A DNA stretch of 64,000 nt, taken from NCBI GenBank assembly GCA_965223325.1, contig CBDCWI010000001.1, forward strand, positions 480,001 to 544,000, read 5' to 3'. A program made the position numbers and the translations under genes. Positions 14,501 to 59,021 of this stretch are shown in pieces. Numbering within the stretch: the stretch's first letter is position 1; every line of letters starts with the position of its first letter. Source of the DNA: Candidatus Multivoradales bacterium. Its GTDB lineage: Bacteria; Acidobacteriota; Thermoanaerobaculia; Multivoradales; Multivoraceae. A model generated the notes under the pieces. It saw nothing but the letters and a program-made list of their open reading frames with translations. It searched no databases and had not been told where the DNA came from.

Positions 14501-17500
14501 GGAACCCCTGTATGAACTGGAGGCCCTTCTTCAGGCCCCCGCTCCGGGCATGTTCTTCAACGTCGGCATTAATCGCCTCGAGATCTGCTTCAGAAAGTGG
14601 CTCCCCCGAGATGAGCTTTTCCAAGATGTCTGGGTGTTGTTGAAGGAAAGTGCGCACACGAGCCTCCGTTTTTCGGGCAAGCTCTTCGAAGACTATTCCG
14701 AGATAGGCCTCGTTATGGCCCGCCCCTTCACCCTTGAATCGATTCTCAAGGTAGTTTCCTACATAGGCGCCGTAGAAGGCACCGCCCACGATTTGGTAGA
14801 AGCGCACATGATCGAGTTCGTGTCCTAGCAGCGCTAGGCCCTCTAGCGTTCGACGTCTGACACCGCTACTCGTCTCTCCGGGCTCCACGAAGACGAAGTT
14901 CCCCAGCGCGATCGCGGTGTTCTTGTTCGGTACAAGTCGACTGTCCAAGAACAGTTGGGTTGATGAGAAGTCGGCGCCGAACCACCTATTGAAGAACTGC
15001 AGCACGTTTGCTTCGAGTGGCTCGAGACCATCGGGATCAACGAAGCTCATGGGGTTGTTATAGCTGTAGATGTAGCGGTTCCAGCTCAGGGTGCGTCCTG
15101 GCTTCCCAGAGATCGGATCTACCGAAACGAATCTCCCCAAGAGCGGCGAACTGTACCTGGCATGCATGTAGTCCAGATCATCCATCACGTTGGTCGTAAT
15201 GGCCTCATCCCGCTCATGAGACGTAAATTTCGTCGTCGCCTTCACCCCGTCGCCACTGGGGCTACTGGGCGTGACCTGCTCCCCAAAGGGAAAGAACTCG
15301 TAGGTCTCGACGACGCTTCCTGAGCTGTCGCGGACCGTCCTCGGTGAGCGGAGGTGGTCGCGGTAGTAGAAGAGCGTTTCGCCATCTTCTTCGACCGACG
15401 CAATGTTGAGGGGACCGGCGTAGATGCTGTCCCGATAGCGGCGCGTATAGCCGCTGCCTGTACTTCCTGGCGGTTCGGACTTCGACCAACACTCCGTGTC
15501 GTCGGTTTCGAAACTGTCCGCGAAAAGCGCTCCCGCGTTGCCACCCGTCGGAAAGCCACACGAGCCCCTGTACTCTCGGATCACCTGCCCGTTGAAGTCC
15601 CTCAAGGTGTATTGATCATCGCCTGGCCGCGCTTCGACGATTCGTTCGTCGTCGGCAGTGTAGACGTAGCTGTGATCCTGGGCACCGGTGGAGAGTTCCA
15701 GCATCGCTCCTAGCAGGTCCCAGGTGTAGCCGACGGAACCGCTCCCCGCATCCGGACGGCTGGTCATGTTGCCCTGCTCGTCATAGGTCCAGGTGCCCGG
15801 CCCGGTCACTCGATTGCTCCCGGTACTGACAGTTACCAAGTTCGGCGCCCACGAGGATCCCGTCCAATTCTCGACATTGGTGCGGTTGCCGAAGTCATCG
15901 TACGTGTAGCGCTGTTGGTTCGTGGATGAACCGAGATCGGCCTCGATCAGCCGACTGGCTCCTCGATAGTAGTACTGCGCACCGCCGACCTGAGTGACGT
16001 TCCCGGCGCCGTCGTAGGCCAGGGTCCATGTCGTTGCTCCGTCTGAGAAGCTGCTGGGGCGTCCCATGCGATTCGGATCGAAGCCGAGGGTGTAGTTCTT
16101 CGAGTTTGCGAGCTGGTACTGGTGAGGCATACCGTTACGGTGAAACAGGAGATTCGTCACGTAATCCTGGTCTGCTGACGTGACCGTCGACAGTGCCCCC
16201 TCATCGTAGGTGAAATCGACTTCTCGTGTGGTCACGGCACAGTCCGTCGAGGCCACACTCGCGACACGACAGGGGTAGACGAGTTTCGAAACACCCCCGA
16301 GTTCATCGTACTCCTGGCGCTGGTAGAAGAAGATCGACGGCTCACCGGGAGGAGCGATCTCGGTGTGTCGGCCATCGGGACGCCCGTCACGGCCTTTGTA
16401 GGTGTAGGTCTCGCTGATGAGGTAGGCGTTCCCACCGGGAAGGTAGGACCAACGCTTCGCCGTCTTCAACTGGCCACGGGCGCCGAGACCGTTGGCGGCG
16501 CTGCTGTTGCCGTAGTACTCGAACTGCTTGTATTTCGTGCCGTTCTGGTGCTCGACGCGATCGAGGCGACCGGCTGCGTCGTAGTAGTACCGGCGCGACT
16601 TGGTCGAGGGTTCGCTGCTGTAGCGCTTCTCGAGAACGTTCCCCCTCGAGTCGTACTTGGCATAGAGGACCTGGCCGGTCTCCGGGTGGGTTTCGCTGGT
16701 GAGAAAACCACGGCCGTCATAGGTCCAACCTCTCGACTGCGCCGGACCGTCCAGGGAGAACCCGTTGTCGTTGTGCGTGGTGTAAGTCGCGTGCTGGAGG
16801 ACTGCGCTCTTGAGTCGCCCTCCCGCATCGTGACCGTAGCTCGCAAATAGATAGTCGCCCGCATTGACATCCCGGAGGCTTTCTCGGGTGCTCACAAGGC
16901 GCCCGTAGCCGTCGTATTGCAAGATCTTCATGCCGCAGAGCCAACCCGAGTTCGACTGCCCGGCCTTGAAGCAGAATGAGCCTGCCTCTCCGGAACGAGG
17001 GCGCATGCGCACGAGGCTGGCAGACCACTGTTCGCCTACATGGGCATAGTCGGTCTGGAAGCCATCTGGTGCGATCGATACTTTCGGCCGACCGTAGCGG
17101 TCGAACCCCGAGAATGTCGTGCTCGAAGAACTCTGGGTACAACCGTTCGCGTGCTCAGAGGTGGACTCGAGCTCGGTAGAGCATGTTGTCCACCCGAGGA
17201 CGTTGCGCTCGATGAGACGCTCAGACGTCACGGTGTTCCCCGGTGATCCGACGCTTGCGACGTTCCGCCGCTCCGCACTGACTGCCCCGTTGCCGTCGAA
17301 GTAGATCGTTTCGGCGGTCGCGATGGCCCCGAGGCAACTCCCGCCGCCTGGCCGTTGATAGCGGTTGATGTGGGCCAGGCCCGAGACTGAGAGAGTGCTG
17401 CCATAGCTCCAAGTCGCACTCTGGTAGTCGATGTCGGTACAGGCGCCTAGTGGGCTCCCGTTGTAGGGGTTCGCCTCCGTCATGCGCCCTAGATCATCGT

Positions 17501-19645
17501 ACTCATAGCGAACCGAGAACCCTTGCGTGTCGTTGTCTTGACGTGCTGAATAGTCTTCTTCCACCAGCCCGGTGCTCGCGTCGATATCGCGGTCGACGAG
17601 CCGGGCACCGTCTCCTACGAAGAAGCTCTTCTTGAGTGCGCCGTACTGGTACTCGTGACTAAGTTCATAGTCGGCTGTCCCGAGCGACGCCGAACAGGTA
17701 TTGCTGGTCGGCACCTGGTCGTTGACGCCGCCGTGGTGCTTCTCGCTGGTGACGAAGCCGCCGCTCTGGCCAAACTCGACGATCACATCCTTCGGGCCGA
17801 GGCTGGTGCCCACGGCGATTCTTCGGGTTCGCTCGAGGAAGCCGTTGCCGGCGTCGAAACAGAACTCGGTCTTGTCGGTGTCGCCGCCCTCGCTGACCTG
17901 GGTGTAGTTGAAGATACCGAGAACCCACTCGCCGCTTAGTGAAGGAGCCGTGCCGCTACAGCCGGAGTCCCAGTCACAACTGTAGGTTGTGCTCACCTTG
18001 TTGAAGTTGCTCGTAGAGACACGCGACGTCGGGGACGCACTGCTGCCGGAGCCCAGGCTGCTGGTGGTGGTTGACGTTCGGAAGTGGCCGAGGCCGTCGT
18101 AGCTCGACCGCTCCGTTTTCGTCCAGGCGCTGTTGCCTCCAGGGCTGCCCCAGTTGTTGCCGTCATCGTCGTCGTGGTAGATGACTTCTTCTTTCAGAAC
18201 ATGAGGGTTCGTCGGGAAATAGGGTCCGGTCGGCGTACTTCGACCGGGTCCGTAGGCATAGCGCACGTAGAACGAACGCAGAGGATTGGCGTGATCCGTC
18301 GCAGAGAATTCTTGCCGCGAGAGAAACAACCCGGAATCGTGAGGTGACGCAAGAGCCCCGCTGGTTGTGAGCGGAAGCCCGCGGCGCGCGTCCTCAGTCT
18401 CGTTCGAGTAGAAGTAATGCTTCGTCAAGTGATTGAGTGGATCGGTAACGTGAACCACTCGCGTGTCGGTCACGACGTTGTTGAAGTTGTCATATTGCCA
18501 GGAGCCCGAACTGGTCCCAAAGCCGCTCCCCTTGTCGTACGGAACCGTCAGCGTACGCATATCGATCGCCGTGACAGTTTCTACCCAGTCTTTTCCGAGC
18601 CCGGCGTTGAGGTCCCAAATCTGGTAGGTCCACTCGTAGGTCGACCCCGTCGGAACCGTCATGCGTTCGAGAAGCCCATTCTTGAACTTGTCTGCCGGTG
18701 CCGATGAGTCGGAACGTAGTCGAACTCAAACCGCTCGGTCTCGGGTAGGTTCAGCTGTTCGAGAAACGAGTAGGTGGTGTGGCCGTTGGTCGAGTCGTGT
18801 GGCTTGTACGTGTCGCGGTTGATGTAGCTGAAGGTGTACGGCGTGGTACCACCCCCGAACTTCGCCAGGTTGACCTGGTTGATTCTCGACTGCCCCGACG
18901 GGTCCGTCGAGAGTGAGACGGTGTGCGTGCGGATCCCGTCATTCACCGTCCACTGCGTGGGTTGGGCCACACCGCCGCTGTAGGTAATCGAGACTTCATT
19001 GCCGAAACGGTCGGCAATCAGGCGGATACGACCCTCGACTGTCTCAAAGTAACGCCTCGTTCCGTCCGCGTGTTCGACCACATGGCAACTGATTGTGAGG
19101 GAACCACAGCTCGAAGAGGGTTGGTTGGTCCTGAGGCGCATGAACGAACCGTCTCGTGTGTAGAGCGTCCACTGACCGCTGGCGCTTCCCTCGGACCCGT
19201 TCGTTGAGTGCCACAGGTCACCCCAGAAGATGCGCTTTGAACCATCGCCGTCGAGAAGCGCCCAGCGATTACCGCTGAAGTCGTTGTTTGCGTCGGGCGC
19301 AAAGAGACGGCCGAACTCGATCATCCAACCAAAGCCGGCATTGGAACGAACGTCGAGCTCAGTGAGCGCGGTCTGACCGTTATCCTCGAACTGCCATGGG
19401 TAGTGGATGTAGACGAGGTTGAAGCGATAGGACAGCGTGCTCGAAACCACGTACTCGATTCCTAGCGGGATCGCGACACTGAGACTGCCATTCGATAGGT
19501 TGACTGAGTCGAGCTGGCCGAACTCGTAGGCCGTGGGGTTGCTGAGGCCTTTGGCCAGATTTGGGTGTTCCTGGGCTGCGGTCGGGGTCGAGAACAAGAC
19601 CAGTGAACCGATGGCGAGCGCAGTGGCAAGGTTTCGACAGTTCAT
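14484..19645 (-). CDS. Signal-peptide RHS/YD-repeat polymorphic toxin (~1720 aa if joined), split by a frameshift near 18713; DUF4157-like HExxH tip
   Basis: ORFs 18659-19645 (signal peptide, DSVNLSNGSL) and 14484-18662 (YD repeats, DHLRSPR, YMHARY..LGRFVSVDP, NNPMSFVDPDG, tip LLGHELDHV); frames join as FDYV/SDSSAPADKFKNGLLERMTVPTG. Confidence 0.88.
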
Positions 19646-20376
19646 TGCAGGTCCTCCACGGCCTCGACCAGCACTCCTCGAAAGGTTTTTGTGTCAAAGA
19701 AGAGGACTCGATCGCCTTCGAGAATCTCTCGGAGCCTCTCGTTGGGCCTCGTCTCCCCTCTTGGCTTCAGGCTGGTCAGGGGGACGGTTAGTTGGGCGTT
19801 CTCCTCGAGGTCCATGTCGTCCTCGCCGCCATCGCGAAACTCCCTCGCCCAACTCCCAACTCCTGGCCGGATCCAGACGACCTCGAGGCGCTTTCCTTCG
19901 TACCTGATCTGTACCGGCGCATTGGCCTCGCTCGGCCTACGGAAGGTGATTCCGTCTATGTCGGGGAGCCGAAGTTCTCGTCCACCGGATACTTCGACAC
20001 CGCTATCGCCACGCTCGAGATCAATAGCAAGCCACACTGTGGCCCCGTCGTAGCTCCTATCGAGGTCGATCGCAGCGAAACCGGACGCGTCGGCGGTAGC
20101 CGTCTCATGAAGTCGATGGGTCTCGAGCCAAGTGCCTTCGATCAGCTCTTTGATGTACCCGAAGAAGAATGTTCTCGCTCCTGCAACAAGGCCAGATGCC
20201 GAGACACGCTCGGTCGGCACGTCGAACGTGACCTGAACCGGCCCCTGAGGCGGCGGAGCGGACGCGTCGGGAAGCTTGAAAAGCGAGTCGAATGGCACTG
20301 AACCTGCGCCACCCTGAGCCGACACTCCGGTCGTCGCAACGATCGCCAGAATGACAAAAGACAGCAGCTGTTTCAT
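19642..20376 (-). CDS. Secreted hypothetical protein coupled to the RHS gene
   Basis: AAAGGAGA RBS, signal peptide MKQLLSFVILAIVATTGVSA; stop overlaps RHS ATG. Confidence 0.75.
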   Translation of the reverse strand: MKQLLSFVILAIVATTGVSAQGGAGSVPFDSLFKLPDASAPPPQGPVQVTFDVPTERVSASGLVAGARTFFFGYIKELIEGTWLETHRLHETATADASGFAAIDLDRSYDGATVWLAIDLERGDSGVEVSGGRELRLPDIDGITFRRPSEANAPVQIRYEGKRLEVVWIRPGVGSWAREFRDGGEDDMDLEENAQLTVPLTSLKPRGETRPNERLREILEGDRVLFFDTKTFRGVLVEAVEDLQ

Positions 20377-20650
20377 GCGATCTCCTTTGGGTCTCGCGTG
20401 GACCCACAGGGGCGAACAAGGCAACTCGCGCGAGGTCAGAATCGCGAGTTCGGTCGCCGGAAAAGACGCTGGCTGCTGTCTCGACATCAGGCTAGCACAC
20501 GCCCTCGAAGAACGGAACGAGCGGGCCGCATCCGGTGGAAGACCCGCGGAAACGCCGTCACCGAGGCCGGGTTCAGTTTCAGGCGCGCCTAGGCTCTGCG
20601 GCCCTACTCCTCGGAGACCTCACCGAAAAAGACGCCGGTGATGGGGGCCG

Positions 20651-24274: not shown

Positions 24275-24381
24275 GAGGGTTGTCTGTTCGCCTGGGCCCG
24301 CGTGGGCCCGCGGCGGCGCTGTCTATCGCTGGCTCATCGCGAGCCAGGCGGCGCCTTCTTCAACTCCAAGGTCTCTTGACG

Positions 24382-26037
24382 ATGGCGGTTCGATCCTCTT
24401 CACCGGCGGTCTGCACCCTCGCTGCAGCTCTCGCGCTCGCCCTCTCCCCAGTCGCTACCGCGCAGCAACCTGACGCGACCACCGGATCGTTCGCCACCCC
24501 CGCTGCCAGCGCGCGCGCCGACTCGCTCACTACAGTGCACCGCGAACCGGTGATGGTGCGCGAGATCAACCCGCGCCACAACCCACTCGCCTCCGAGGCA
24601 GGCCGCGGTGAGGCGACCTGGGATCGTACCGACACGCCAGTCGATCCGCTGGTTGGCGCGTCGAGCAACCGCTCGCGCACCGCCGTGCCGCTCAATAGTT
24701 GGGAATCGACCGACGCTACGACGGGCTGCGGCGGATGCTCACCTCCCGACATGGCAGGCGACGTCGGTCCGAACCATTACGTCCACATGGTCAACGCCAC
24801 CAAGGTCGCAGTCTTCAGTAAAGACGGTTCGGAAACTCTGGCCGGCCCCTTCAGCTTCGGTGACCTCTGGGACTCGGGGCCCTGCTCGAGCAACGCCGGC
24901 GACCCGATCGTGGTCTACGACGAGCTCGCCGACCGCTTCGTGCTCTCCCAGTTCGCCCAACCGACTCACATGTGTTTTGCGGTCTCCCAGACCCCCGACC
25001 CAACCGGCGCGTACCACGTCTACACATTCGACGTTGGCGCGTTCCCCGACTACTTCAAGCTCGGCGTGTGGCCGGACGCGTACTACATGTCGGCCAACGA
25101 GGCGACCTACACTGCCTACGCCTTCGATCGCGACAAGATGTTGGCCGGCGAAACTGCATCGTTCGTGAAGTTCACCAGCCTGCCGAACCTGGCGCTGCCG
25201 GCAGACATCGACGGTTCCGAGGGCCCCGCAGAGGGCACGCCGGGGCTGTTCTACACCTTTCTCGACGAGACCTTCCACACCGTCAGTAACGACATGCTGC
25301 GTCTCTACGAAATGGTTCCCGACTTCGCCACGCCTGAAAACTCGACCTTCGACATGCTCCAGGAGATCGAGCTCAGCAACTTCAGCTATACCGTTTGCGG
25401 CTTCTTCAACTTCAACTGCCTCAAACAGCTCGAAACGACGCAGACTTTCGACACCATCTCGGAGTGGCCACTGCAGCGCTTTCCCTACCGCAACTTCGGC
25501 GATCACGAGTCGCTACTGGGCGTCTTCGGGATCGGCGGCGGCCTCGGTGAGAAGGGCGCGGCTCTGCGCTGGTTCGAGCTGCGCAACAGCGGCGAAGGCT
25601 GGGAGCTCCACCAGGAAGGCACTCACGACCCGGGCGACGGGCATGACCGCGCCGTCGGCTCGATCGCCATGGACCAACAGGGCAACATCGCCCTCGGCTA
25701 CACGACCACCAGCAGCACCATCCATCCGCGCATCGACTACGTGTCGCGCAAGGCGGACGACCCCTACGGCACGATGGGTAGCGAACTGACCCTGGTCGCC
25801 GGCGCCAACTCGAACACCCACACCGCGCGCTGGGGCGACTACTCCGCGTTGTCGATCGATCCAGCCGACGGCTGCACGTTCTTCTTCACGAGTCTCTACT
25901 ACGACGACTCACCGACCAGCTGGCAGACGCGCATTGGCTCGTTCAAGGTCGACGGTTGCGAGCCTCCCGTTCCCGCGCTCTTCGAAGACGACTTCGAGTC
26001 CGAGGACACTCTTCTCTGGACAACGTCCAAGCCCTGA
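24382..26037 (+). CDS. Secreted putative beta-propeller protein with C-terminal FEDDFE tail
   Basis: Signal peptide; PPD..GDVGPNHYV, GDPIVVYD, RWGDYS, DPADGCTF; ends LFEDDFESEDTLLW; paralog of 57405-59021. Confidence 0.75.
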   Translation: MAVRSSSPAVCTLAAALALALSPVATAQQPDATTGSFATPAASARADSLTTVHREPVMVREINPRHNPLASEAGRGEATWDRTDTPVDPLVGASSNRSRTAVPLNSWESTDATTGCGGCSPPDMAGDVGPNHYVHMVNATKVAVFSKDGSETLAGPFSFGDLWDSGPCSSNAGDPIVVYDELADRFVLSQFAQPTHMCFAVSQTPDPTGAYHVYTFDVGAFPDYFKLGVWPDAYYMSANEATYTAYAFDRDKMLAGETASFVKFTSLPNLALPADIDGSEGPAEGTPGLFYTFLDETFHTVSNDMLRLYEMVPDFATPENSTFDMLQEIELSNFSYTVCGFFNFNCLKQLETTQTFDTISEWPLQRFPYRNFGDHESLLGVFGIGGGLGEKGAALRWFELRNSGEGWELHQEGTHDPGDGHDRAVGSIAMDQQGNIALGYTTTSSTIHPRIDYVSRKADDPYGTMGSELTLVAGANSNTHTARWGDYSALSIDPADGCTFFFTSLYYDDSPTSWQTRIGSFKVDGCEPPVPALFEDDFESEDTLLWTTSKP

Positions 26038-38529: not shown

Positions 38530-39772
38530 CGAGCGACCGGCGGCTTGTGACCAGGGGGCGAGAGTCCACAGGGCTTTCCTCGCTGAGCAGATTCGACTGC
38601 CACCAGTCGAGGAGTGCAAGAAGTGGGCTGGACCAGAACCAACGTGCAGCGGGATAGCGAGCGAGCAGGGCCGAGGCCGTTGTCTCCAGCCGGTAGGGAG
38701 TGTCGCCTACTCCATCGCCATTCCAGTCGAATCCCCTGTAGTCGCTCCAATAGTTGCCCAACCCTTCGACTGACCAACGGTTGTCGACCGGACGTCGGGC
38801 ATAGACCTGCACGACATTGCCATCGAAGTCATTCGCCCAGAGCGAGTTCGCCTCGGAGCCGGCGGTCAAGTAGACACCGACCCCGTTGGCCAAAAGACTG
38901 TTCCGGGTGAGGTCGTTATTGGCCGAATTCTCGAGGAACAGACCGCGACCGTTGCGCGCCAGGACGTTCTCTCGAACTGTCGACCCCTCGAGTTGCAGGC
39001 AGAGGATGCCGAACCGTTCGTTTTCAGCCGCCCGATTGCCGCGGATCACGTTGTTCATCGAGTACATGAGCGCGAAACCACCGACGGAGCGATCGAAGCG
39101 ATTGCCGCTCAACTCGTTGCGCTCGGAGTACATGTAGTGAATGCCGTAGCGCAGCCCCTCACCGTTGTTACTTTCAATGCGGTTGTCGTGAGCAAAGGAC
39201 AGGTAGATCCCGTCCCGTACGTCGACCAGCTGGTTGGCGAGAATCTGGTTGCGGCTGGTGTGCCAGAGGTGGATGCCGTTCCCTCGTCGCTCCCGCTCAG
39301 TGCTTCGGTCTCCAGTGATCACATTGCCAACGACCTGATGGCCGCTACCGGCGCGCAGGTAGATGCCGAACGCGCGCGCTTCGATCTGACAGTCGCGCAC
39401 CTCTCCTCGTTCGACCTCCTCGAAGAGCACAACCGCATCGTCTGCCGACAAGTCGGCGCCCGAGCCGCGAATCGTGAGACCGCAGAGCTGGACGCCGTCG
39501 GCGGTCACCCGGACTGTGGTGCCGTGACCCCCGCCATCGATCACGACACCCTCGCCGCCAGAAATCACAAGCCTCTTCTCGATCGTTAGCGGGCCCGGGT
39601 GAACGCCGGGCTCGAGCTGCAGGTGATCGCCGTCCTGCGCGTTTTCGAGCGCCACGCCGAGTTCCCCGGGTGCGACTCGAACGATGGCGGAGGTGGCCTC
39701 TCCTCTTGTCTCCGCAAACAGACCTTCGGCTGCCAGCCAGGTCAACAGAATCGCGGTCCTCAGGCTAGCCAC
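38522..39772 (-). CDS. nosD: NosD nitrous oxide reductase maturation protein
   Basis: RGNGIHLW, RDGIY, LRYGIHYMYS, GNYWSDYRGFDWNGDGVGD; GTG start 39772. Confidence 0.92.
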   Translation of the reverse strand: MASLRTAILLTWLAAEGLFAETRGEATSAIVRVAPGELGVALENAQDGDHLQLEPGVHPGPLTIEKRLVISGGEGVVIDGGGHGTTVRVTADGVQLCGLTIRGSGADLSADDAVVLFEEVERGEVRDCQIEARAFGIYLRAGSGHQVVGNVITGDRSTERERRGNGIHLWHTSRNQILANQLVDVRDGIYLSFAHDNRIESNNGEGLRYGIHYMYSERNELSGNRFDRSVGGFALMYSMNNVIRGNRAAENERFGILCLQLEGSTVRENVLARNGRGLFLENSANNDLTRNSLLANGVGVYLTAGSEANSLWANDFDGNVVQVYARRPVDNRWSVEGLGNYWSDYRGFDWNGDGVGDTPYRLETTASALLARYPAARWFWSSPLLALLDWWQSNLLSEESPVDSRPLVTSRRSLDG

Positions 39773-41247: not shown

Positions 41248-41879
41248 GGCGCGCTCCCGGCGGCGGCACCGCGGCGGCGCGAGCCGAACAAGAAGCAGGC
41301 GGTCATGACAAGCGCTCCCAAGAGTGACCAGCCGCCAGCTCCGAGACTCATCCAGGCGTCGAAGTTCGCCACCTGAACATGCCCCAGGATTGGCGGCGTG
41401 AAGTTCTCGACTCCCTCCATGACTTCGTCGGCGCGCTCGTGCCCCATCTGATACAGCCGATACTGGAGAACCGCTGCGGCACAACCTGAAACGGCCAATC
41501 CCAGAAGAAGGAGCGCCGCCGCGGCTCGCGGCAACAGACGGCGGGGTGCTCCTGCTGTCAGAAATGCCAGGACGGCAAGCAGTCCGAGCGCCCAGGGCAA
41601 AAGGCGCGTTTCGGGACCGTCCAACGGCAAGACGACGCCGACGTACTGGTTGAGGATGTCAATCTCCTGGAGATCACCCTCGATGCGGCCCGCCGACACC
41701 GTCACGGAAAGCGCTTCATCACCGCGGTACTGAGGGGCAACCATCTGAGTCCTCCAGAGCGGTAGAAAACAGCTGAGCACAAACAGTACCGCGGCGGTGA
41801 TCAACCAGGACCGGCCGCCCCTCGCGGCGCGGACGATCCAGGGAACAGGCTCGGAGCTCTCGCTGTCGTTAGCGGCCAC
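41244..41879 (-). CDS. nosB: NosB-like membrane protein of clade II nos clusters
   Basis: PLWRTQMVAPQY, DLQEIDILNQYVG, LQYRLYQMGH, PPILG..QVANF; directly after nosZ. Confidence 0.72.
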   Translation of the reverse strand: MAANDSESSEPVPWIVRAARGGRSWLITAAVLFVLSCFLPLWRTQMVAPQYRGDEALSVTVSAGRIEGDLQEIDILNQYVGVVLPLDGPETRLLPWALGLLAVLAFLTAGAPRRLLPRAAAALLLLGLAVSGCAAAVLQYRLYQMGHERADEVMEGVENFTPPILGHVQVANFDAWMSLGAGGWSLLGALVMTACFLFGSRRRGAAAGSAP

Positions 41880-43677
41880 CACCGGCCGCCTCACCGCCCG
41901 CACTATGCGGCTCGACCAGCATGCGCCCCCTCATCTCGAGGTGAAGCGCCGAGCAGAACCAGGTGCAGTAGTACCAGAACGTCCCCGGCCGATCGGCAAC
42001 GAACGTCACGTCTCGTGTCTGGCCGGGGTCGAGCGCGACGTTGATGCCATAGGAGTCGATGGCCAGACCGTGCGACATGTCGCGAATGGTCTCGATATTG
42101 GTCGTGCGGATCGTCACCGTGTCGCCCTCTTTGACGGTGAACGACGGCAGCCCGTACTTCGAACGAATCGCCGTCATGTAGACCATGACCTCGTTCGGTC
42201 CGACCCGCTCGATTCGGCTCTCGCCTTCGGCAACCGCCTCGGGGCTCAACTCCTCGGTCTGGATCACATGCGGCGTCAGATCCGAGGCCAGCATGAACAC
42301 CGCATCGTGCGGTTCGGGCTCCGCCGGAAACGAGCTCAGAAGGCGCATCTGGCTGCCCGAGATGTCGATCAACTCCTGATTCTCGGGCATCGTCGGCCCG
42401 ACCGGGAGAAACATGTCCTTCGAGAGCTTGTTGAGAGCCAACAGATACTCGCCGGTGGGATGCATGGTCTCGGCGAGGGTCGCCTGGGTGTGGCCGACGT
42501 TGTAGTGTACATCGACACGATCGAGAATGTAGTCCGGATCAGCTGCCACCGCCTTGTCGATGTTCCACTTGACGATCTGCGAGTCGACGAACAGCGACGT
42601 GTAGGCGTTGCCTTCTCCGTCGAAGGTCGTATGCAAGGGGCCGAGGCCGACCTCGGCCTCAGCGGCGATCGCCAGGCGCGTGTTCTCCACTTTGTCGATC
42701 TGCGAGATGTCGATGATGGTGACCGTCGGCGAGAGTTTTCCCGACCCGATGACGTAGCGGCCGGTCGGGTCGACGTCGCACCCGTGGGGGTTCTTGGGCA
42801 CCGGAATCACGTAGAGAATCTTAGAGCTCGTCGCGCGCGGATCGAGGACACGCACGCCGTCGATCTCTTCGTACTCGCGGCGATCGAGGGCGTCTTCGGC
42901 GGCGCGAATGTCGATCGCGATGATCGCGTCTTCATCGAGGCGAATCATCTCTTCGACGGTCAGCCCTCCCTCGAGGTTGTAGACCGTGGCAAAGGCCCAG
43001 CGCCCGTCTTTGCTCGAATCGTTGATGTCGGCATTGCCGGGCAGCAGCACCTCGAACTCGACCGCCAGGCTCTCGGGCTCGAGAAACGCCATCACTGCGC
43101 CGTAGCCTTCGTCGTCGGTCTTGTTGCGCGGGATCTCGGCGCGGAACTCACCGTTGACGATGATGTACGAGGTGTCGGGCGACACCACCGCGATCCCGTG
43201 GGTACCGTAGAGATTCGGAATCTTCTCGATGGCAGCGGTTTCGAACGTATCGAGCTCGATCCGTGCAATGCGACTGTTGGCCTTGTCGTTGATCCACAGC
43301 CAGCGGCCGTCGTAGTCGCCCGCCGTCTCCGAAAGGATCGGGTGATGGGTATCTCCCCAGAACGGACCGCTGGCTCTCAAGCGCTCATAGGTCTCGGTTC
43401 CCGGCACGTTGGCGTAGCCGTAGCCGGCGCGCGGTTCGAACACCGGGATCTGGCGCAGGTAGCGACCCGACGGCAGGCCATAGACATAGACCGACCCGCT
43501 CTGCCCGCCGGAGAGGAAAGCGTAGTACTTGTCCCACTCGCCCACCGGCACATAGACGTCGGCGGCCAGGTCTCCACTCGGCGCCGCGTGCTCCTCTGGT
43601 GGTCCTCCACATCCCGCGAGCGCGAGCACCGCGAGCGCGACGAAGGCCGGGAGGATCCTGGTGCTTGGTTCGTTCAT
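41869..43677 (-). CDS. nosZ: Clade II (Sec-dependent) nitrous oxide reductase, lipoprotein
   Basis: YAFLSGGQSG..VYGLPSGR; CuZ His motifs DTHHP, THG, PHGC, GPLHT, VGH, EPHD; CuA SHG..CTWFCSALHLEM; LAGC lipobox, no twin-arginine. Confidence 0.95.
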   Translation of the reverse strand: MNEPSTRILPAFVALAVLALAGCGGPPEEHAAPSGDLAADVYVPVGEWDKYYAFLSGGQSGSVYVYGLPSGRYLRQIPVFEPRAGYGYANVPGTETYERLRASGPFWGDTHHPILSETAGDYDGRWLWINDKANSRIARIELDTFETAAIEKIPNLYGTHGIAVVSPDTSYIIVNGEFRAEIPRNKTDDEGYGAVMAFLEPESLAVEFEVLLPGNADINDSSKDGRWAFATVYNLEGGLTVEEMIRLDEDAIIAIDIRAAEDALDRREYEEIDGVRVLDPRATSSKILYVIPVPKNPHGCDVDPTGRYVIGSGKLSPTVTIIDISQIDKVENTRLAIAAEAEVGLGPLHTTFDGEGNAYTSLFVDSQIVKWNIDKAVAADPDYILDRVDVHYNVGHTQATLAETMHPTGEYLLALNKLSKDMFLPVGPTMPENQELIDISGSQMRLLSSFPAEPEPHDAVFMLASDLTPHVIQTEELSPEAVAEGESRIERVGPNEVMVYMTAIRSKYGLPSFTVKEGDTVTIRTTNIETIRDMSHGLAIDSYGINVALDPGQTRDVTFVADRPGTFWYYCTWFCSALHLEMRGRMLVEPHSAGGEAAGGGR

Positions 43678-44876
43678 CCCGCAGGCTCCACGATGAGAGT
43701 GCCGTTCATGTTTGGGTGTAGCGGCCCGGTGCTGCACTGCGAGGCGCAATAGAAGACAAAGGTACCCGCCTTATCGGCCACAAAAGTCACCGACTTGGGG
43801 CGCTGCACCATCGCGCCGTTGATGAACGCCGCACGGTCGTAGCCGTCGATTGCAAAGCCGTGGCCTGCACCAACACCGTTGTCGGTCGGCTGGAAGTTGA
43901 TCCGCACGACCTGCCCCTCCTGCACACGAATCTCGTTCGGTACGAACTTCCAGTTGCGTTCCAGAAGCTCGACGACCACGTCCGGCTCCCCTAGCGACTC
44001 ACCCTGAACCGCCGCGGCCGGAGTTCCGGTCGAGGACATCTTGTGCTCCGCGAAGCTCATCACGTAGGCCGCCAGGTCCCAGATCTGCTCGGGCTCGTAG
44101 GCGAAGTGAAACGACGGCATGGGCGTACCGTTGTTGCCTGTATGAATCGTGAGCGCAACGTCGGAAAGTGTGTAGCCGCGCTTGAACTGGCCGATCTTGT
44201 GGAAGTTACGAGGCAGGAGAGGATTCCCGAAGTCGTCTTCGATCTCGGCTGCCGACGGCCCATCTCCGTAGCCCAGGGCACCGTGGCACTTGTCACAGTT
44301 GGCTTCGAGATAGAGCGCCCTACCTCGTTCGATGGCCTCGTCTGTGAGTTCCGGTGGCGAGCCCAGCTCGACGATGTCATCGATGGGATCCTCGAAGTAC
44401 TCCGAGAACTTCTTGATGTAGTGCACCACCGCCCAACGGTCCTCCTCGCTCAAGAGGAACTGCCATGGCGGCATACCGGTCCCGTGAAGCCCCGCGGAGA
44501 CCGTTCGAAACAGATCCTGATCCGTGGGCATCTGCTCCTCAGCCGTGGTCTTGAAACGAAACAGTCCGGAGGTAAAGTCGCGTGGCTGGGGCGACATGAA
44601 AGGGGCGCAGACTCCCCCGCCTTCACCTCCCTCACCGTGGCAGGCTGCACAGTTCTCGAGGTACACCTGCTCGCCGCGTTCGAGATCAGGATCAGGTGCT
44701 TCGACCGCCGGAGTCGCGAGCCCGGTCCACGAAATGCGGGTGCCAGCTGGCTCGGCGGTTCTACCGGTCGACACCGCAGACGGCTCGGCTTCGCAGGCGA
44801 GCAGCAAGAGAATCGCCAGCACTGAAAAAACGGCTACAGGCTTCGTCGGCAATCCCAACGCTTCTCTCGGCCGCAT
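43674..44876 (-). CDS. Lipoprotein diheme cytochrome c fused to CuA-like cupredoxin domain
   Basis: LLAC lipobox; CAACH and CDKCH; C-terminal GHGF..CASQCSTGPLHPNM; stop overlaps nosZ ATG. Confidence 0.82.
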   Translation of the reverse strand: MRPREALGLPTKPVAVFSVLAILLLLACEAEPSAVSTGRTAEPAGTRISWTGLATPAVEAPDPDLERGEQVYLENCAACHGEGGEGGGVCAPFMSPQPRDFTSGLFRFKTTAEEQMPTDQDLFRTVSAGLHGTGMPPWQFLLSEEDRWAVVHYIKKFSEYFEDPIDDIVELGSPPELTDEAIERGRALYLEANCDKCHGALGYGDGPSAAEIEDDFGNPLLPRNFHKIGQFKRGYTLSDVALTIHTGNNGTPMPSFHFAYEPEQIWDLAAYVMSFAEHKMSSTGTPAAAVQGESLGEPDVVVELLERNWKFVPNEIRVQEGQVVRINFQPTDNGVGAGHGFAIDGYDRAAFINGAMVQRPKSVTFVADKAGTFVFYCASQCSTGPLHPNMNGTLIVEPAG

Positions 44877-45066
44877 GACCCTGAGCTCCTGTGGGCATTG
44901 AAGGGAGGTTCTCAACAGGCTAGACAGGTGCCATCGCGGGGGATAGCTGCGGATTCCCGCAGGCAGTCGCAACCGACACCCAAGTCGATCCTCGACCGAT
45001 CGGGACCACAATCGCCACCCCAGGCGCGAAAGCACCGTCAGGTGAGTCCGCTACGATTCGGCTGAC

Positions 45067-47050: not shown

Positions 47051-48859
47051 ATGGCGACGAGATCTTCGGGCGGACAGTTCCGGGCGTGCCGAGCACGGCG
47101 CGCCGTGCTCGTGGGGGCGACCATCCTGCTGGTCGCCGGCGGACCTTCAGGTCTCGGCGCGCAGGCTTGCGATTTCCGCTCGCTCGCCTCTCCGTGGCCC
47201 GGCTGGGTTCCCGACTGGCCCGGGCAGGGCCGAAACGCCAACGGCAAGACGTCATTTCGAGTCTTCGCCTCCGGGTCAGAGATCGAGAACCTCCACGTCG
47301 AGACACTCGACGCCACCGCAGTCGTGCTGGCGTGGTCGACGGCGGGCGACACCGACTCGGCGGTCGCCTGGTCGTCTGAGCCCACGGGCTGCGAAGTCGG
47401 CTTCCAGCGCAGCGGCGGCCGCCAGCTCCACCGCATGGTCCTTGCACCGCTTGCCCCGAACACGACCTACTGGGCGACGGTGCGGTCTCGCGACGAGAAC
47501 AGCCAGGACACTGAACAGATCTCATTCACCACGCCTCTGCGATCGCCAGCCACCACCCTCAGCTCGTGCCAGGCGATCACCGAGCCCGGCAGCTACCGGG
47601 TCGACAGGAACCTCATCGCACCCTGCACCTGCTTCACCCTCGGCGACGTAGAAGGGGTTGCCATCGACTTCGACTGGCACACCATCCGCTACGCACAGTC
47701 AGATGCAGCGAACGAGTGCCACGCCGTCGAGGTGAGCTACAACACGCGCGATGTCGCAATGCGTAACGGCGTCCTGGTGCAAGGCGACGCCGGCGGCGCA
47801 ACCTACAGCGATGCGATCTTCAACAACTCAGGTGCCGAGATGCTCTTCGAGCGCCTGTGGATCCACGTCTCGAAGTCGGACGCTTCGGGGATCAGGAGCA
47901 TCTTCTCCAACGGCACCATCGCCCGCGACCTGATCGTCGCTTCCGAGGTTCCACACGTGACCAACCGTCACTACCCGGGAAACGCCGGGTTGTTTCTCAG
48001 CGGTTTCCGTACCGATGACAGCGATGACGCCGCCGACCTCTTCTCCATGGAGGTCCACGACAACTTCCTGTTCGGCTTCCCGCAGTGGGGGATCATTCTC
48101 TTCGGTGGTAACCCGCGCAACACCGCGCCACCCGCCGGCGCCCTGCGCGAGGTCTACAACAACCACCTGTTCGGCAACATGATTGCCTCGAACGGCTACG
48201 GCATCGCCGCCTACATCAACCGCGTTGCGATTCACCACAACGAGATCAGGCCGCCCTACAACGGGCGCGGCATCCACCTCACCCACACCGGCTCCACAGT
48301 CACCAAGAACATCGTGCAGACGCTAGAGCGCATTCAAGGCGATCCGGCCGAAGGCTACGTCGACTATTCAGACAAGCACGACGACGCGTCACCCCACGGC
48401 GCCGACGTCTGCGAGTGGCTTCCCGGCCACGGCATTCGCGTCGAAGACGGACGCTACGCCACGATCACCGCCAACGAAGTCCTGGTCGAGACCCTTCCGC
48501 GGGTCACCCTGGGCGCCGTCGGCCTCGACGTGAGCATCTACCCCGAGAACGGCGGACCACTGTCGGGAAGCCAGGTCAACGCCTCGAACAACCATTTCGT
48601 CGCCTGTCGAGCCGAGGGCATGATCTCCTGCCCACGGGAGATTCCGATCTTCGCCGGTTGGTACTGGGGTGAGGCGCCGCTCAGTGCCGGTACGGTCACC
48701 GGAAACCGCTTTCAATCGAATGCCACACCCCTCGAAATCGAACCGGGGCTCGCCAGCGCATCGGGCAACACGCTGGTGAGCGAGAATTGCATCGTGCCCA
48801 TCATGTCGAGCGGTTTCGAGACCGGCGCGCCCGACCGCTGGAGCCGCACGGTTCCGTAG
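47051..48859 (+). CDS. Secreted FN3-like + beta-helix protein with C-terminal SGFE tail
   Basis: Signal peptide; LAPNTTYW FN3-like segment; ITEPGSY and beta-helix repeats; ends IMSSGFETGAPDRWS. Confidence 0.72.
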   Translation: MATRSSGGQFRACRARRAVLVGATILLVAGGPSGLGAQACDFRSLASPWPGWVPDWPGQGRNANGKTSFRVFASGSEIENLHVETLDATAVVLAWSTAGDTDSAVAWSSEPTGCEVGFQRSGGRQLHRMVLAPLAPNTTYWATVRSRDENSQDTEQISFTTPLRSPATTLSSCQAITEPGSYRVDRNLIAPCTCFTLGDVEGVAIDFDWHTIRYAQSDAANECHAVEVSYNTRDVAMRNGVLVQGDAGGATYSDAIFNNSGAEMLFERLWIHVSKSDASGIRSIFSNGTIARDLIVASEVPHVTNRHYPGNAGLFLSGFRTDDSDDAADLFSMEVHDNFLFGFPQWGIILFGGNPRNTAPPAGALREVYNNHLFGNMIASNGYGIAAYINRVAIHHNEIRPPYNGRGIHLTHTGSTVTKNIVQTLERIQGDPAEGYVDYSDKHDDASPHGADVCEWLPGHGIRVEDGRYATITANEVLVETLPRVTLGAVGLDVSIYPENGGPLSGSQVNASNNHFVACRAEGMISCPREIPIFAGWYWGEAPLSAGTVTGNRFQSNATPLEIEPGLASASGNTLVSENCIVPIMSSGFETGAPDRWSRTVP

Positions 48860-51171: not shown

Positions 51172-52800
<1,629 letters not shown>

Positions 52801-54958: not shown

Positions 54959-54978
54959 ACCTCCCGAGGAACAGCCGC

Positions 54979-56256
54979 ATGATGCACTCAACGACTCTTC
55001 TGATGGCTCTTCTCCTGGCCCTTCCAGGAGCAGCCGACGACAGCGCCAACCGTGACTGGCCCGAGTGGCGCGGCCCCGAACAAAACGGCGTGGCCTCCGT
55101 GGGTGAGCCGCTCCCCGCATCTCTGGCTCCGGACGCGGCGCGCTGGACGACCAACATTCCCGGCGAGAGTACGTCGACCCCGATTGTCGTGGGTAACCAG
55201 ATCATCCTGACGTCGCAACTCGGCACCGCGCCGCTCGCCCAGGCTCGCGACGGTGAACCGCGCATGGGAGACGACGAAGTCACCTTTGTGGTGCTAGCCC
55301 TCGCCCTGGAAGACGGCCGCGAGCTGTGGCGCTACTCCTTGCGCTCGGACGGGGTCCTGCCTTCGGTGCACGTCAAACACAATCTCGCCAGCCCCAGCGT
55401 GGTCTCGGACGGTGAGCGCCTGATTGCCTGGTTTGGCACCGGCCAGCTGGTCAGCTTGACGCTTTCCGGTGAGCTCGAATGGCAGCGCCACCTCGGGCGG
55501 GAGATCGGGCCATTCGAAGTGCGCTGGGCGCACGGTAGTTCACCAGCGCTCGACGCCGACCGCATCTTCCTGCTTTGCGACCACGCGCCGCAGAGCTACC
55601 TGCTGGCGGTGGACAAGACCTCGGGTGAAACCTTGTGGAAGGCCGATCGCGGAAGCGGCAAACGGTCCTATTCGACGCCGCTGGTGATTCCACGCGGCGA
55701 TAGCACCGCGGTCATCATCAACTCCAATGAGGCGATCGAAGCCTACGACCCACAAAGCGGCGAGGTGTTGTGGAAGGTCGGGCAGCCCATCCGCGTCCCG
55801 GTGTCGACCCCGGTGTGGCACGACGGCATCCTCTACAGCAGTCGCGGCTATCGCAGCGGCCCCTACCTGGCGGTGCGTACCGGCGGTTCAGGCGACGTCT
55901 CAGACAGTCACCTCCTGTGGAGAAACAAGACTGGGGCGCCGTACGTCTCGTCACTGCTCTACTACGACGGGCTGGTCTACATGGCAACCGAAACCGGAGT
56001 CGCCTCGGCGATCGACGCGGCGAACGGGGAACTGGTCTGGCGAGAGCGACTCGGCGGTGACTTCTCTGCCTCACCCTTCGCCGCAGACGGCAAGATCGTG
56101 CTCGCCAACGAAGAAGGCGAACTGTTCGTGATCAAGGCTGGGCGAGAGTACGAACTCCTCTCGAAGACCGAGTACCCCGAGCGCATCATGGCCTCACCTG
56201 TGCACGCCGGAGGCACCTATCTGATTCGCACCGACTCGAAGCTCTACGCCTTCTGA
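54979..56256 (+). CDS. Secreted PQQ-like beta-propeller protein
   Basis: DWPEWRGP, repeated G...W motifs, SSP/STP repeats. Confidence 0.88.
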   Translation: MMHSTTLLMALLLALPGAADDSANRDWPEWRGPEQNGVASVGEPLPASLAPDAARWTTNIPGESTSTPIVVGNQIILTSQLGTAPLAQARDGEPRMGDDEVTFVVLALALEDGRELWRYSLRSDGVLPSVHVKHNLASPSVVSDGERLIAWFGTGQLVSLTLSGELEWQRHLGREIGPFEVRWAHGSSPALDADRIFLLCDHAPQSYLLAVDKTSGETLWKADRGSGKRSYSTPLVIPRGDSTAVIINSNEAIEAYDPQSGEVLWKVGQPIRVPVSTPVWHDGILYSSRGYRSGPYLAVRTGGSGDVSDSHLLWRNKTGAPYVSSLLYYDGLVYMATETGVASAIDAANGELVWRERLGGDFSASPFAADGKIVLANEEGELFVIKAGREYELLSKTEYPERIMASPVHAGGTYLIRTDSKLYAF

Positions 56257-57200: not shown

Positions 57201-57404
57201 CGGCTGGTGTACGGGCCGGAAAAGAGGGCCATTCGGATCGGGAGAGACTAGAAAAAAAGGTTTTTGGGGCTACTGAGCCCGAAAAGGAGGCGAGCTGTAA
57301 CAAACCGTCTCCATCTCGGAAGGAGTTTCTACGCGCGCCGATTCTCCGCAACAGCGCGGCGTTCGGAGCCCTTCACCCGCCGAAGTTTCCTGGAGCCACT
57401 TCTC

Positions 57405-59021
57405 ATGTTCTCGATTCAAAACCCCGGCCTTTCTTCGATCACACGAGTCGGCATCACATGCCTTCTTTCGGTCCCGTTCGCTTTCTTGATCGCGTCGCCA
57501 GCAACGGCCCACGAGAACTCGAGCACCTCGCGTCAGGCACACCTGGACGGCCTGGTCGACTTTCGCGTCGTCCATGCCGGTAAGGGCTCCGGCTCGATCA
57601 CCGAGACCCGCAACGGCTCCACCGAAAGGACCAACGACCGTCCCTTCACGTCGCCGCACAGCAACATCTCGGGCGCGACCAGCACCGGCTCAGTGGTCAG
57701 CGACCTGGCCTTCGCCGTCGGTCGCCGTCACATCGTGCAGGGCGTCACCAGTGCCGGCGGCACAGCGCCTACGTTCCGTATCTACTCGAAGGAGAACAAG
57801 ACGTTGATCGCGGTCCTCGAGATGGACGATCTGGCGATTTCGAACGCCTGCCTCCAGGACTCTGCTGGCACACCCCTGGCGGCCTACGACCACCTTCGCG
57901 ATCGCTTCGTACTGGCCACGATGGCGCGTGGCTTCAAGATCTGCCTGTTCGCGGCAGAGGACGCCAGCCCGGTCACCACGCGCTGGTTCAACTACACCCT
58001 CGAGACGGAAGCAGAAGATTTCACCCTGCCCCGCATGACGGTGTGGGACAACGCGGTGGTGATCAGTACCGGCACGCCCGACCCGACGGTCTACATCCTC
58101 GAAACAGCCCAGGCAATCCGTGGCGAGCCCATGTCGTGGTTCGACTTGAGCTGGCCCGACGTGCCGGGAATGGCAGGCACCTGGGGCGCGCTGTTCACCG
58201 TTTCGAACCTCACCGGCGACACGGCCGATGGTCGCAACATGACTCTCGTGCGCATCATCGACGAAGAGCTCACGCCCCACGACAGGCACGAAAACTATGA
58301 CCTGCTCGAGGTCGTCGACGTGCGCGCCAACTGGCACGACGGAAGCGTCAGCTACTCGAACCCCTACCGCATCAAGACCTACGAGTTCCGCTCGAAGCTC
58401 TGCGACGCCAACGGGCAGTGCGTTCTCCAACCACACGGCGAGCCGCTGTATGCCAACGAGCGCGTCCTCTCGGAGCTTTCCTACCGCCGCTTCAGCCATC
58501 ACGAGAGTCTTGTAGGTTCGTTCACCGTCGACTGGAGTGCTGGCTACGATCTACCCGGCATTCGTTTCTTCGAGTTGCGTCGCGAATCCCCCACGGCAGA
58601 CTGGGAGCTACACTTCGAGGGTATCCACAACAGCCAGGAGAAGGACCGCTTTCTATCGTCGATCGCCTTGGACCAGTACGGCAACCTGGCGATGGCCTAC
58701 GTCGAGAGCGGCCTCCAGTCGTATCCGAGCCTGGCGTACGCCGGCTGGCAAAAATCGTCCCAGCTGGGTTATGCCTTCGTAGGCAACCGCACGATCGGAG
58801 CCGGCGGCCAACCATCGCCTACGCCCTGGTTCGGGCGCTTCACCCACCTCGAGGTCGACCCGATCGACCAGTGCCTCTTCTGGGTGACCGGCCAGTACCA
58901 GAAGAACCAGAACTGGGCGACACGCATCGCTTCGTTCAAGCACCCGCAGTGCAAGCGCGAGATCTTCGCCAGCGACTTCGAGAGCGGCATCGCGGGCTGG
59001 TCGGGGGGTATGGGCCGCTAG
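57405..59021 (+). CDS. Secreted putative beta-propeller protein (paralog of 24382-26037) with FASDFE tail
   Basis: Signal peptide; AVGRRHIVQ, YDHLRDRF, IRFFELR, SIALDQYGN, DPIDQCLFW; ends IFASDFESGIAGWS. Confidence 0.72.
   Translation: MFSIQNPGLSSITRVGITCLLSVPFAFLIASPATAHENSSTSRQAHLDGLVDFRVVHAGKGSGSITETRNGSTERTNDRPFTSPHSNISGATSTGSVVSDLAFAVGRRHIVQGVTSAGGTAPTFRIYSKENKTLIAVLEMDDLAISNACLQDSAGTPLAAYDHLRDRFVLATMARGFKICLFAAEDASPVTTRWFNYTLETEAEDFTLPRMTVWDNAVVISTGTPDPTVYILETAQAIRGEPMSWFDLSWPDVPGMAGTWGALFTVSNLTGDTADGRNMTLVRIIDEELTPHDRHENYDLLEVVDVRANWHDGSVSYSNPYRIKTYEFRSKLCDANGQCVLQPHGEPLYANERVLSELSYRRFSHHESLVGSFTVDWSAGYDLPGIRFFELRRESPTADWELHFEGIHNSQEKDRFLSSIALDQYGNLAMAYVESGLQSYPSLAYAGWQKSSQLGYAFVGNRTIGAGGQPSPTPWFGRFTHLEVDPIDQCLFWVTGQYQKNQNWATRIASFKHPQCKREIFASDFESGIAGWSGGMGR

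Follow-up and report, generated by a model that had tools for sequence, protein, structure and literature searches.

A stretch of 64,000 nucleotides from the genome of a Candidatus Multivoradales bacterium (Acidobacteriota, Thermoanaerobaculia; assembly GCA_965223325.1) contains five copies of a short motif with an FE...W core, four of them forming the extreme C-termini of open reading frames (ORFs) and the fifth internal to an RHS ORF, all at the positions given in a preliminary description of this DNA. The whole stretch, referred to below as the window, is G000:C1:480001-544000, G000 being the genome (6.69 Mb, 64% G+C, two contigs) and other G numbers being other genomes. The motif is a C-terminal tag shared by about 90 exported proteins, and a small jelly-roll protein is its candidate binding partner; the earlier suggestion that the machinery would not be found in the window agrees with the location of this partner, which is encoded elsewhere in the genome.

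Two of the tagged ORFs of the window are paralogues. The first (24382-26037; ORF 24280/24382-26037, forward strand) encodes an exported protein of 551 amino acids, counted from the Met that gives a signal peptide, and has no Pfam family; its C-terminal tag, LFEDDFESEDTLLWTTSKP (25978-26034, forward strand), is followed directly by the stop codon, the ORF ending ...ALFEDDFESEDTLLWTTSKP*. The second (57405-59021; ORF 57264/57405-59021, forward strand) encodes an exported protein of 538 amino acids, also without a Pfam family, and ends in IFASDFESGIAGWSGGMGR (58962-59018, forward strand), in which the spacing from E to W is one residue shorter. At their full length of 585 amino acids (24280-26037 and 57264-59021) the two share 28% identity (E 5e-40), so that the tagged cargo of the window comprises three families, not four. 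The other two are beta-helix proteins with no detectable similarity to each other: a right-handed beta-helix protein (34581-36413, reverse strand; Pfam Beta_helix/NosD) with the tag LFCDDFEAGDFAAWSRTGQ (34584-34640, reverse strand; ORF end ...CLFCDDFEAGDFAAWSRTGQ*), and a beta-helix protein with a purple-acid-phosphatase-N-like domain (47051-48859, forward strand) with the tag IMSSGFETGAPDRWSRTVP (48800-48856, forward strand). In translation, all four tails end 4-5 residues past the W[ST] pair. Nowhere else in the genome are tags as dense as in the window, where five tagged genes fall within 50 kb.

The fifth copy is of a different kind. The RHS protein (14484-18662, reverse strand), made up of RHS repeats, an Rhs-associated core and an eCIS_core/DUF4157-type C-terminal domain, had been counted as a further carrier of the tag; the motif is indeed present (LFADSFETDDTECWS, 15483-15527, reverse strand), but as part of an internal insertion rather than as a C-terminal tag. 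It lies 328-332 residues ahead of the RHS stop, within an insertion of about 35 residues, flanked by two Cys, which five RHS paralogues encoded in G000 do not have. Two other details of the preliminary description were not borne out. The choice-of-anchor Q domain assigned to the protein at 34581-36413 has no NCBIfam match at E≤0.01, and the position of the motif “shortly after a Cys” is not general: a Cys occurs within 15 residues upstream in 20/74 tails from the genome, against an expected proportion of about 17%, and is therefore not considered part of the tag.

How common is the tag outside the window? The pattern [LIVMF][FMLC].[DSGNE].FE.{3,8}W[ST], applied to all six-frame ORFs, matches 57 times genome-wide, with 53 of the matches no more than 10 residues from a stop; reversed ORFs give 1 match, and three shuffles give 2, 3, and 1. 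A hidden Markov model (HMM) built from the 53 tails finds 89 ORFs of at least 60 amino acids that end in the tag (93 in a separate six-frame search), which is far above chance and corresponds to about 2% of the genes of the genome. The consensus, of about 19 residues, is h-L-F-x-D-[DG]-F-E-[ST]-G-x-T-x-x-W-[ST]-x-x-x-P-COOH. When 60 tails are aligned, F17, E18, and W25 do not vary at all, and conservation at F13 and D15 is 90% or higher. The distance from the Trp to the end of the protein is exactly 5 residues in 45/85 tails; the ends read S/T-x-x-P or G, and Pro is the last residue in 36/89.

The distribution among related genomes is all-or-none. Of 30 relatives, 15 are tag-rich (17-147 tags), three have 4-5 tags, and twelve have 0-1, the last group including complete single-contig genomes of 4.6-6.8 Mb. 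In a sample of 301 genomes from the phylum, 23 have any tag match (E≤1e-4) and only seven have eight or more copies: members of the same order, plus G186, from another family of the same class. A degenerate DNA pattern for FxDGFE[ST]GDT finds at least 127 loci. Among the matches listed, most are from Thermoanaerobaculia, Holophagae or Acidobacteriota metagenome-assembled genomes (MAGs), and a few are from Deltaproteobacteria-labelled MAGs, Polyangiaceae and Crocinitomicaceae; the one cultured strain among them is Acanthopleuribacter pedis, in which the copy is internal. Among 128 matches to this pattern in other genomes, a stop follows 13-20 codons after the first Phe in 112 and exactly 18 codons after it in 77, while ten run past the flank.

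The tag is appended, after a variable linker, to some 90 Sec- or Tat-exported proteins. That it might instead be a strand in the structure of the last domain of each cargo protein was raised in the preliminary description as an outcome that would count against a sorting or docking role, and the motif does look like a beta-strand, with a Cys upstream at times (the 20/74 tails noted above). This explanation is already contradicted, and we regard it as very improbable: the cargo domains have no relationship to one another, the 60-tail alignment shows no conservation upstream of the tag, and orthologues or paralogues lacking the tail end cleanly at a domain boundary. DUF1501 proteins illustrate the last point. 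At 19/30 fetched loci, all 19 of them in tag-bearing genomes, they end in ...FPGY..Y.PLGVV.G.DLP... plus the tag, whereas at six loci from tag-free genomes (two in G025 and one each in G007, G002, G004, and G009), and in untagged paralogues, they stop right after FPGW.G.... Similarly, the tag is on 8/9 complete M36 peptidases from tag-rich genomes and on 0/2 from the tag-free G025, which end at the preceding domain; among the C25 peptidase modules of G000, 7/8 continue into a linker and tag, and the eighth stops at ...GDPALLLPEDQ, the end of the domain. As G025 retains untagged M36 and C25 proteins, the tail is evidently not needed to have these enzymes. In an AlphaFold2 model of a tagged DUF1501 protein (27-sequence alignment, mean pLDDT 81), the tail is unpacked, with pLDDT values of 56/50/35 over the last 30 residues.

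The cargo is of the kind expected in a secretome, and the idea of unrelated signal-peptide proteins sharing one extreme C-terminal tag holds well beyond the window, for proteins with Sec- or Tat-type leaders and within a restricted lineage. By a crude heuristic, signal peptides are predicted for 43/75 tagged genes and for 726/3,048 other long ORFs (odds ratio 4.3). Pfam families could be assigned to 57/79 tagged proteins (E≤1e-4). They include many peptidases (seven subtilases of family S8, M10, M14, M36, M6, C25, trypsin, reprolysin), a GH9 cellulase, CotH/LTD proteins, about eleven right-handed beta-helices, adhesin-like PKD/DUF11/DUF7933 repeats, an MtrC-like multihaem cytochrome, a purple acid phosphatase, GSDH, a legume-type lectin, a copper amine oxidase, and four DUF1501 proteins with twin-arginine leaders. 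Giant proteins are also marked: five of the six ORFs of 3,755-4,573 amino acids in G000 (e.g., C1:999740-1013461 and C1:265722-277904) end in the tag. The three that were scanned (4,012-4,551 amino acids) combine 14-22 SdrD_B (prealbumin-like) repeats with a C25 peptidase and the tag, and the other tagged giants likewise have a C-terminal C25 module followed by the tag; the GHG...TC dyad is present in all eight C25 modules of the genome. 

Where does the motif come from? A tail-profile search of 1.84 billion representatives matches 6,237 proteins at E≤0.001, and the best 150 of these were examined, a ranking that favors proteins with several copies. Among these 150, 133 have 2-5 copies of the motif, mostly 200-225 or 275-300 residues apart, and in the multi-copy proteins the motif opens a repeated domain of 200-290 amino acids; all 17 single-copy matches are C-terminal, and 17 of the 150 have two or three tags in tandem at the C-terminus, an arrangement that would fit a binding module. 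In the multi-copy proteins two Pfam models begin right at the motif, Polysacc_lyase (PF14099) at profile position 1 and CBM_4_9 at positions 2-4; neither model has a significant match in G000. An HMM of the intact unit (229 units, 257 positions) has the consensus ...iFaDGFESGdlsaWssavtdggdlsvqsaaalsGsyg..., and the tags align to its positions 4-31 (upper end about 31-32; the window tag at 25978-26034 aligns to positions 7-30). The tag is thus, on sequence comparison, a detached N-terminal strand segment of a ConA-like or polysaccharide-lyase-like beta-jelly-roll domain.

When all ORFs of G000 are scanned with the intact-unit HMM, one aligns to positions 33-207 (86 bits, iE 2.5e-23). This ORF, called the acceptor below (G000:C2:3491491-3492120, reverse strand, outside the window), encodes 209 amino acids with a signal peptide. 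Its leader is MTIALSGLLCLAGAAVA, and the first mature residue, D18, is also the first residue aligned to the HMM. As the tags end where the mature acceptor begins, tag and acceptor complement each other exactly as the two parts of one domain, with the break between positions 32 and 33. In relatives, the orthologues have 209-241 amino acids and a signal peptide; the mature protein starts with [DNT]xL[DSE]V..., contains the conserved strand YVQDD[ST]P, and usually ends in D.F.SFRTL.P. In a large protein collection the homologues are unnamed or “hypothetical protein,” none with a precomputed Pfam domain; in the Atlas, similar clusters of 217-255 amino acids occur in Pseudomonadota and Acidobacteriota, and in some of these 48% of the members carry PF21340 (Polysacc_lyase-like). 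The AlphaFold2 model of the acceptor (pLDDT 87) is an all-beta jelly roll whose best Foldseek matches are PL20, PL14, PL7, and PL18 lyases (query TM-scores 0.47-0.66). From profile and model together, the acceptor is identified as the remainder of a jelly roll from the ConA-like/polysaccharide-lyase-like neighborhood (PF14099, PF21340, CBM_4_9).

Tag and predicted acceptor were co-folded, using acceptor residues 18-209 (16-row alignment) and a 30-residue tail (60-row alignment). The pair scores 0.78 in each of three runs, whereas the highest-scoring of three controls reaches 0.02; the pass mark, which the pair exceeds, is reached by 116/157 solved complexes and 2/215 mismatched pairs, and a pass of this kind is a statement about fit only. 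The runs share at least 97% of contacts, with partner pLDDT at or above 78. In the predicted complex, tag residues L11-G16 pair with F201-F204, the last strand of the acceptor, and W25-V29 with the YVQDD strand (F47-D51); F17 of the tag touches V23, an invariant residue of the acceptor, and the tightest contacts are those of conserved tag residues with V23, F47-D51, and F201-F204. The C-terminus of the tag meets the N-terminus of the acceptor, a geometry that would explain the fixed distance from the Trp to the end of the protein.

The reading we prefer, to which we would give a probability of about 60% on the basis of these alignments and models, is that tag and acceptor pair non-covalently by strand complementation. 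The tag would insert into a strand-deficient acceptor, pairing with its last strand and with the conserved YVQDD strand, so that a single acceptor protein could capture any tagged exoprotein. The resulting complex might hold or arrange exoenzymes on the cell surface or on a glycan, or else pass them on for secretion. We are less confident of surface docking as the role than of the pairing itself. Docking that keeps or organizes exoenzymes is favored by the types of cargo, the giant stalk-plus-peptidase proteins and the tandem tags, as well as by the terminal Pro, the untagged M36 and C25 enzymes of tag-free G025 and the lectin- or lyase-like fold of the acceptor; a periplasmic adaptor for secretion is what the acceptor could be instead.

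The occurrence of the acceptor across genomes is consistent with such a pairing. As a protein query it is found in 14/15 tag-rich relatives, in 1/12 tag-free ones (G014), and in the low-tag G006; as a profile it is found in the tag-rich G186 (a 223-aa ORF) and in G155, with no match in the tag-free G315, G052, G068, G025, and G028. With G000 counted among the tag-rich genomes, the acceptor is present in 15/16 genomes with 17 or more tags and in 1/15 with 0-1 tags, totals that include an out-of-sample set (G186 positive; G315, G052, and G068 negative). In the 301-genome sample the profile matches 7/7 multi-tag genomes and 5/294 others, three of these five having 1-3 tag matches. Contrasts in the presence of tag and acceptor occur within at least three families (f1, f5, f17).

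Several observations weigh against the pairing or limit what the co-occurrence can say. G029 has 141 tags and no acceptor match by protein or profile (97% complete, 150 contigs), while G014 has an acceptor-like gene and no tag match (79% complete). The acceptor matches in the low-tag G005 and G008 begin at model position 40, inside larger ORFs. The “tag” matches of G155, G154, and G204 are the N-termini of intact domains, which is the ancestral state (in G204 and G154 the motif stands directly before the domain). Related genomes are not independent samples, and since tag and acceptor derive from one domain family, their co-occurrence could partly reflect shared ancestry. The co-fold, for its part, indicates fit rather than binding in trans, because the halves of one domain may pass from the model's memory of intact jelly rolls; moreover, the acceptor alone folds confidently in AlphaFold2 and may not need a donor strand. 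Finally, 20 acceptor loci have no tag in the 1.5 kb to either side, and a single acceptor gene would have to serve about 90 tagged proteins. Binding of the two in the cell is a prediction of the preferred reading.

Another possibility is that the tag is an export or sorting signal, recognized by an outer-membrane translocon or a sortase-like enzyme, with the jelly-roll protein acting as a periplasmic adaptor or shuttle or being unrelated. We consider it unlikely, the evidence pointing to a strand-deficient jelly-roll binding partner rather than to a sorting enzyme or translocon, though several features speak for it. A preprint on tripartite C-terminal sorting signals (10.1101/2023.06.07.544157) lists seven attributes, and the tag shares five of these seven: C-terminal position, copy number, an invariant motif, signal peptides, and unrelated cargo. 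The two that it lacks, on the same list, are the transmembrane helix and the basic (Arg-rich) cluster.

The likeness extends to the domains that precede the tag. Choice-of-anchor Q is above the NCBIfam cut-off in four tagged proteins of the genome, directly before the tag in three; one tagged protein has choice-of-anchor X, and a different one a J-like domain; and the tagged M36 peptidase matches the NCBIfam myxosortase-, rhombosortase-, and T9SS-dependent M36 families, a group of enzymes known to exchange their C-terminal signals. Domains Q, J, and X and the M36 family are likewise found in front of the tripartite anchors (PEP-CTERM/exosortase, GlyGly-CTERM/rhombosortase, MYXO-CTERM/myxosortase, LPXTG/sortase), so the earlier argument from interchangeable signals is sustained at the level of the whole genome. 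The sharp all-or-none distribution among relatives would also suit a sorting signal, as would the tagging of folded Tat substrates and of the MtrC-like cytochrome.

Nevertheless, the tag lies outside every known sorting-signal family, and no published description of such a docking system was found. Tails compared with NCBIfam at E≤10 gave 0/60 matches, and with Pfam at E≤10 two stray matches in 60, so that no model of either collection covers the tag; full-text literature searches found no publication with the motif strings or a matching description. The statement that the tag is not PEP-CTERM, LPXTG or GlyGly-CTERM was correct: there is no transmembrane helix or basic tail, nor, with the protein ending 5 residues after the Trp, any room for one. 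PEP-CTERM (TIGR02595) has 0 matches in G000 and matches in 3/31 relatives; exosortase, rhombosortase, and myxosortase genes were not searched for. The C-terminal domain of type IX secretion (T9SS) substrates is also a signal without a membrane anchor, on very similar Sec-exported cargo (hydrolases and adhesins, including C25 and M36), but it is a beta-sandwich of 70-100 amino acids, whereas the tag has 19 residues with nothing conserved upstream. TIGR04183 has no match in G000 at E≤0.01, no T9SS C-terminal-domain Pfam family occurs in the 79 tagged proteins, and PorV (NF033710) has no match in the genome; nor does SprA (TIGR04189), for which the control likewise matched nowhere. Type I secretion signals belong to one-step export without an N-terminal signal peptide, while the tagged proteins have Sec- or Tat-type N-termini (by the heuristic).

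Profiling of classical machinery against the tag, one of the checks that had been proposed, found no candidate that follows it: PEP-CTERM, secretins, the secretin extension, a T2SS-operon protein, the PorU-like module, and PQQ_2 propellers all fail to do so. Pfam Peptidase_C25 is present in the tag-free G025, G028, and G004 and absent in the low-tag G006 and G008. A PorU-like module of 820 amino acids, present below cut-off among the C25 modules of the genome, looked promising in a first set (15/15 vs. 2/16), but out of sample it is absent in the tag-rich G186 and present in the tag-free G315 and G068. Secretins are in all 31 genomes regardless of the tag, as is the cohesin-like C-terminal extension of a type II secretion (T2SS)-type secretin. 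A 352-aa T2SS-operon protein is in 5/5 test genomes, three of them tag-free, and a 238-aa ORF beside the secretin is in 0/5 and is probably not a gene. PQQ_2 counts do not follow the tag either (67 in G007, 43-51 in genus g11, 0 in the tag-rich G022). The genome has eight S41 tail-specific proteases. A search for strand-less partners using the MAM-like domains of two tagged proteins found none, and nothing recurrent was found within ±3 genes of tagged genes in G000 or in the 111 kb (91 ORFs) that surround the small number of tagged genes in the low-tag G005, G006, and G008. The untagged M36 and C25 proteins of tag-free G025 argue further against a sorting signal, and tandem tags would be odd for one that is cleaved.

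A third explanation needs no partner in trans: the tail may be an evolutionary remnant that serves as a C-terminal cap, for example through protection from carboxypeptidases or weak self-association. The motif is, after all, the start of a common domain, and the frequent terminal Pro (36/89) is in keeping with protection, as Pro in this position would resist carboxypeptidases. A protein on the metagenome-assembled contig L255 has also been read in this light: after its tag come a hydrophobic stretch and then a basic tail (...WSTVIPALFGDGPLVNGMLLVLMVAGAAVMRLKER*), resembling a classical tripartite anchor, which suggests that the tag is able to precede other anchors. We regard a remnant as improbable, more so than a sorting signal. 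It would not be expected to be added independently to about 90 unrelated families, to keep five near-invariant residues and a fixed distance of 5 residues from Trp to end (45/85 tails), to show an all-or-none pattern between sister genomes, or to co-occur with a stand-alone protein beginning exactly at the break point.

If pairing by strand complementation is correct, the arrangement would have partial parallels in known systems. The dockerins of cellulosomal enzymes are short C-terminal modules found on many secreted enzymes that bind non-covalently to a beta-sandwich, the cohesin. The tag resembles them in being shared by unrelated secreted enzymes and in standing in tandem at times. It differs in its length (19 residues, as compared with about 70), in the absence of EF-hand-type calcium loops and of any Pfam dockerin match, and in that it is proposed to complete the fold of the acceptor rather than bind to its surface; the acceptor, too, is a single domain and not a multi-cohesin scaffoldin. 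In chaperone-usher pili, a strand-deficient fold is completed in trans by a strand of another polypeptide (donor-strand complementation). There also the missing strand comes in trans and the position at the chain end matters, but the fold is an Ig-like pilin rather than a jelly roll and the donor is the N-terminal extension of the next subunit rather than a C-terminal enzyme tag; tag and acceptor have no known chaperone or usher, nor do they imply a polymer. In engineered split domains such as SpyTag/SpyCatcher, a peptide tag and a “catcher” reconstitute one fold; here the pair would be natural, a jelly roll rather than CnaB2, with no isopeptide chemistry indicated.

A wider version of the proposal is that a naturally split domain acts as a general “tag and catcher,” one jelly roll serving 50-150 exoproteins per genome in a cellulosome-like, cell-associated exoproteome. 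We offer this only tentatively, as somewhat less probable than its opposite; its range would probably be Thermoanaerobaculia/Holophagae-type Acidobacteriota and some Pseudomonadota. C-terminal tags of the secretome have led repeatedly to new envelope machinery (sortases, exosortases, T9SS), and here the genome of a little-studied, mostly uncultured group of Acidobacteriota supplies a concrete and testable partner. True pairing would be a natural example of domain splitting for protein docking, would explain how dozens of hydrolases are kept or organized by these bacteria, and would provide a small natural peptide/acceptor pair for protein engineering. Annotation would gain as well, since the 19 residues would by themselves suffice to mark hundreds of “hypothetical” proteins as exported or cell-associated.

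Some acceptor variants have C-terminal extensions. Read by eye, that of G026 consists of three SLH-like repeats, those of G010 and G015 are FN3-like repeats, and a form of 310-383 amino acids (P0159, P0162, P0166, and locus L309 of G014) has two dockerin-like C-terminal repeats (LD.DGNG....LTDGLL.LR..FGF). The SLH-like and dockerin-like assignments rest on this reading, because PDB sequence searches, whether by the acceptor profile or by the fusion proteins of G026 and G014, returned nothing useful and did not confirm them. On the side of secretion, a T2SS-type secretin of 974 amino acids (G000:C2:3239714-3242638; locus L139:10717-13638, reverse strand) has a Pfam Cohesin match at residues 814-907, C-terminal to the secretin domain and conserved in 31/31 relatives; we know of no described secretin with a cohesin-like domain. 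It is conceivable, in the boldest form of the docking proposal, that the acceptor couples tagged cargo to the secretin through its putative dockerin-like or cell-wall-binding extensions and the cohesin-like domain of the secretin; a type II-like pathway would then have its first linear targeting tag.

A further jelly-roll relative lies near the start of both contigs, in the form of a near-duplicate 1385-aa ORF (G000:C1:16315-20472 and C2:39256-43413) that matches part of the jelly-roll unit (HMM positions 63-219, iE 0.003-0.011). About 3 kb from it is a small tagged protein of 117 amino acids (C1:12795-13148 and C2:46573-46926). These two could be another tag/acceptor pair, dedicated to each other, or else a repeat that the two replicons share. 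Untagged PQQ_2 propellers, of which the genome has 40 genes of this type, including the one at 54979-56256 of the window, are found within ±3 genes of tagged genes 12 times as against 3.5 expected (p ~1e-4).

The remaining features of the window are of other kinds. A nitrous-oxide reductase cluster (36899-45035) lies between tagged genes and comprises NosZ (41869-43749), NosD (38522-40162), the ABC components NosF-like (37792-38619) and NosY-like (36899-37795), and a c-type cytochrome/cupredoxin protein (43674-45035). In the RHS protein, the domain that follows the Rhs-associated core matches eCIS_core (PF13699/DUF4157); upstream of the gene are two ORFs without a Pfam family (18659-19645 and 19642-20487), with 4-base overlaps at each junction. 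A CBASS-like pair (6881-9749) consists of a DncV-like nucleotidyltransferase (8652-9749) and an E1/E2-type protein with ThiF and Prok-E2_B (6881-8644), and an integrase-like gene (11081-11923) is located near it.

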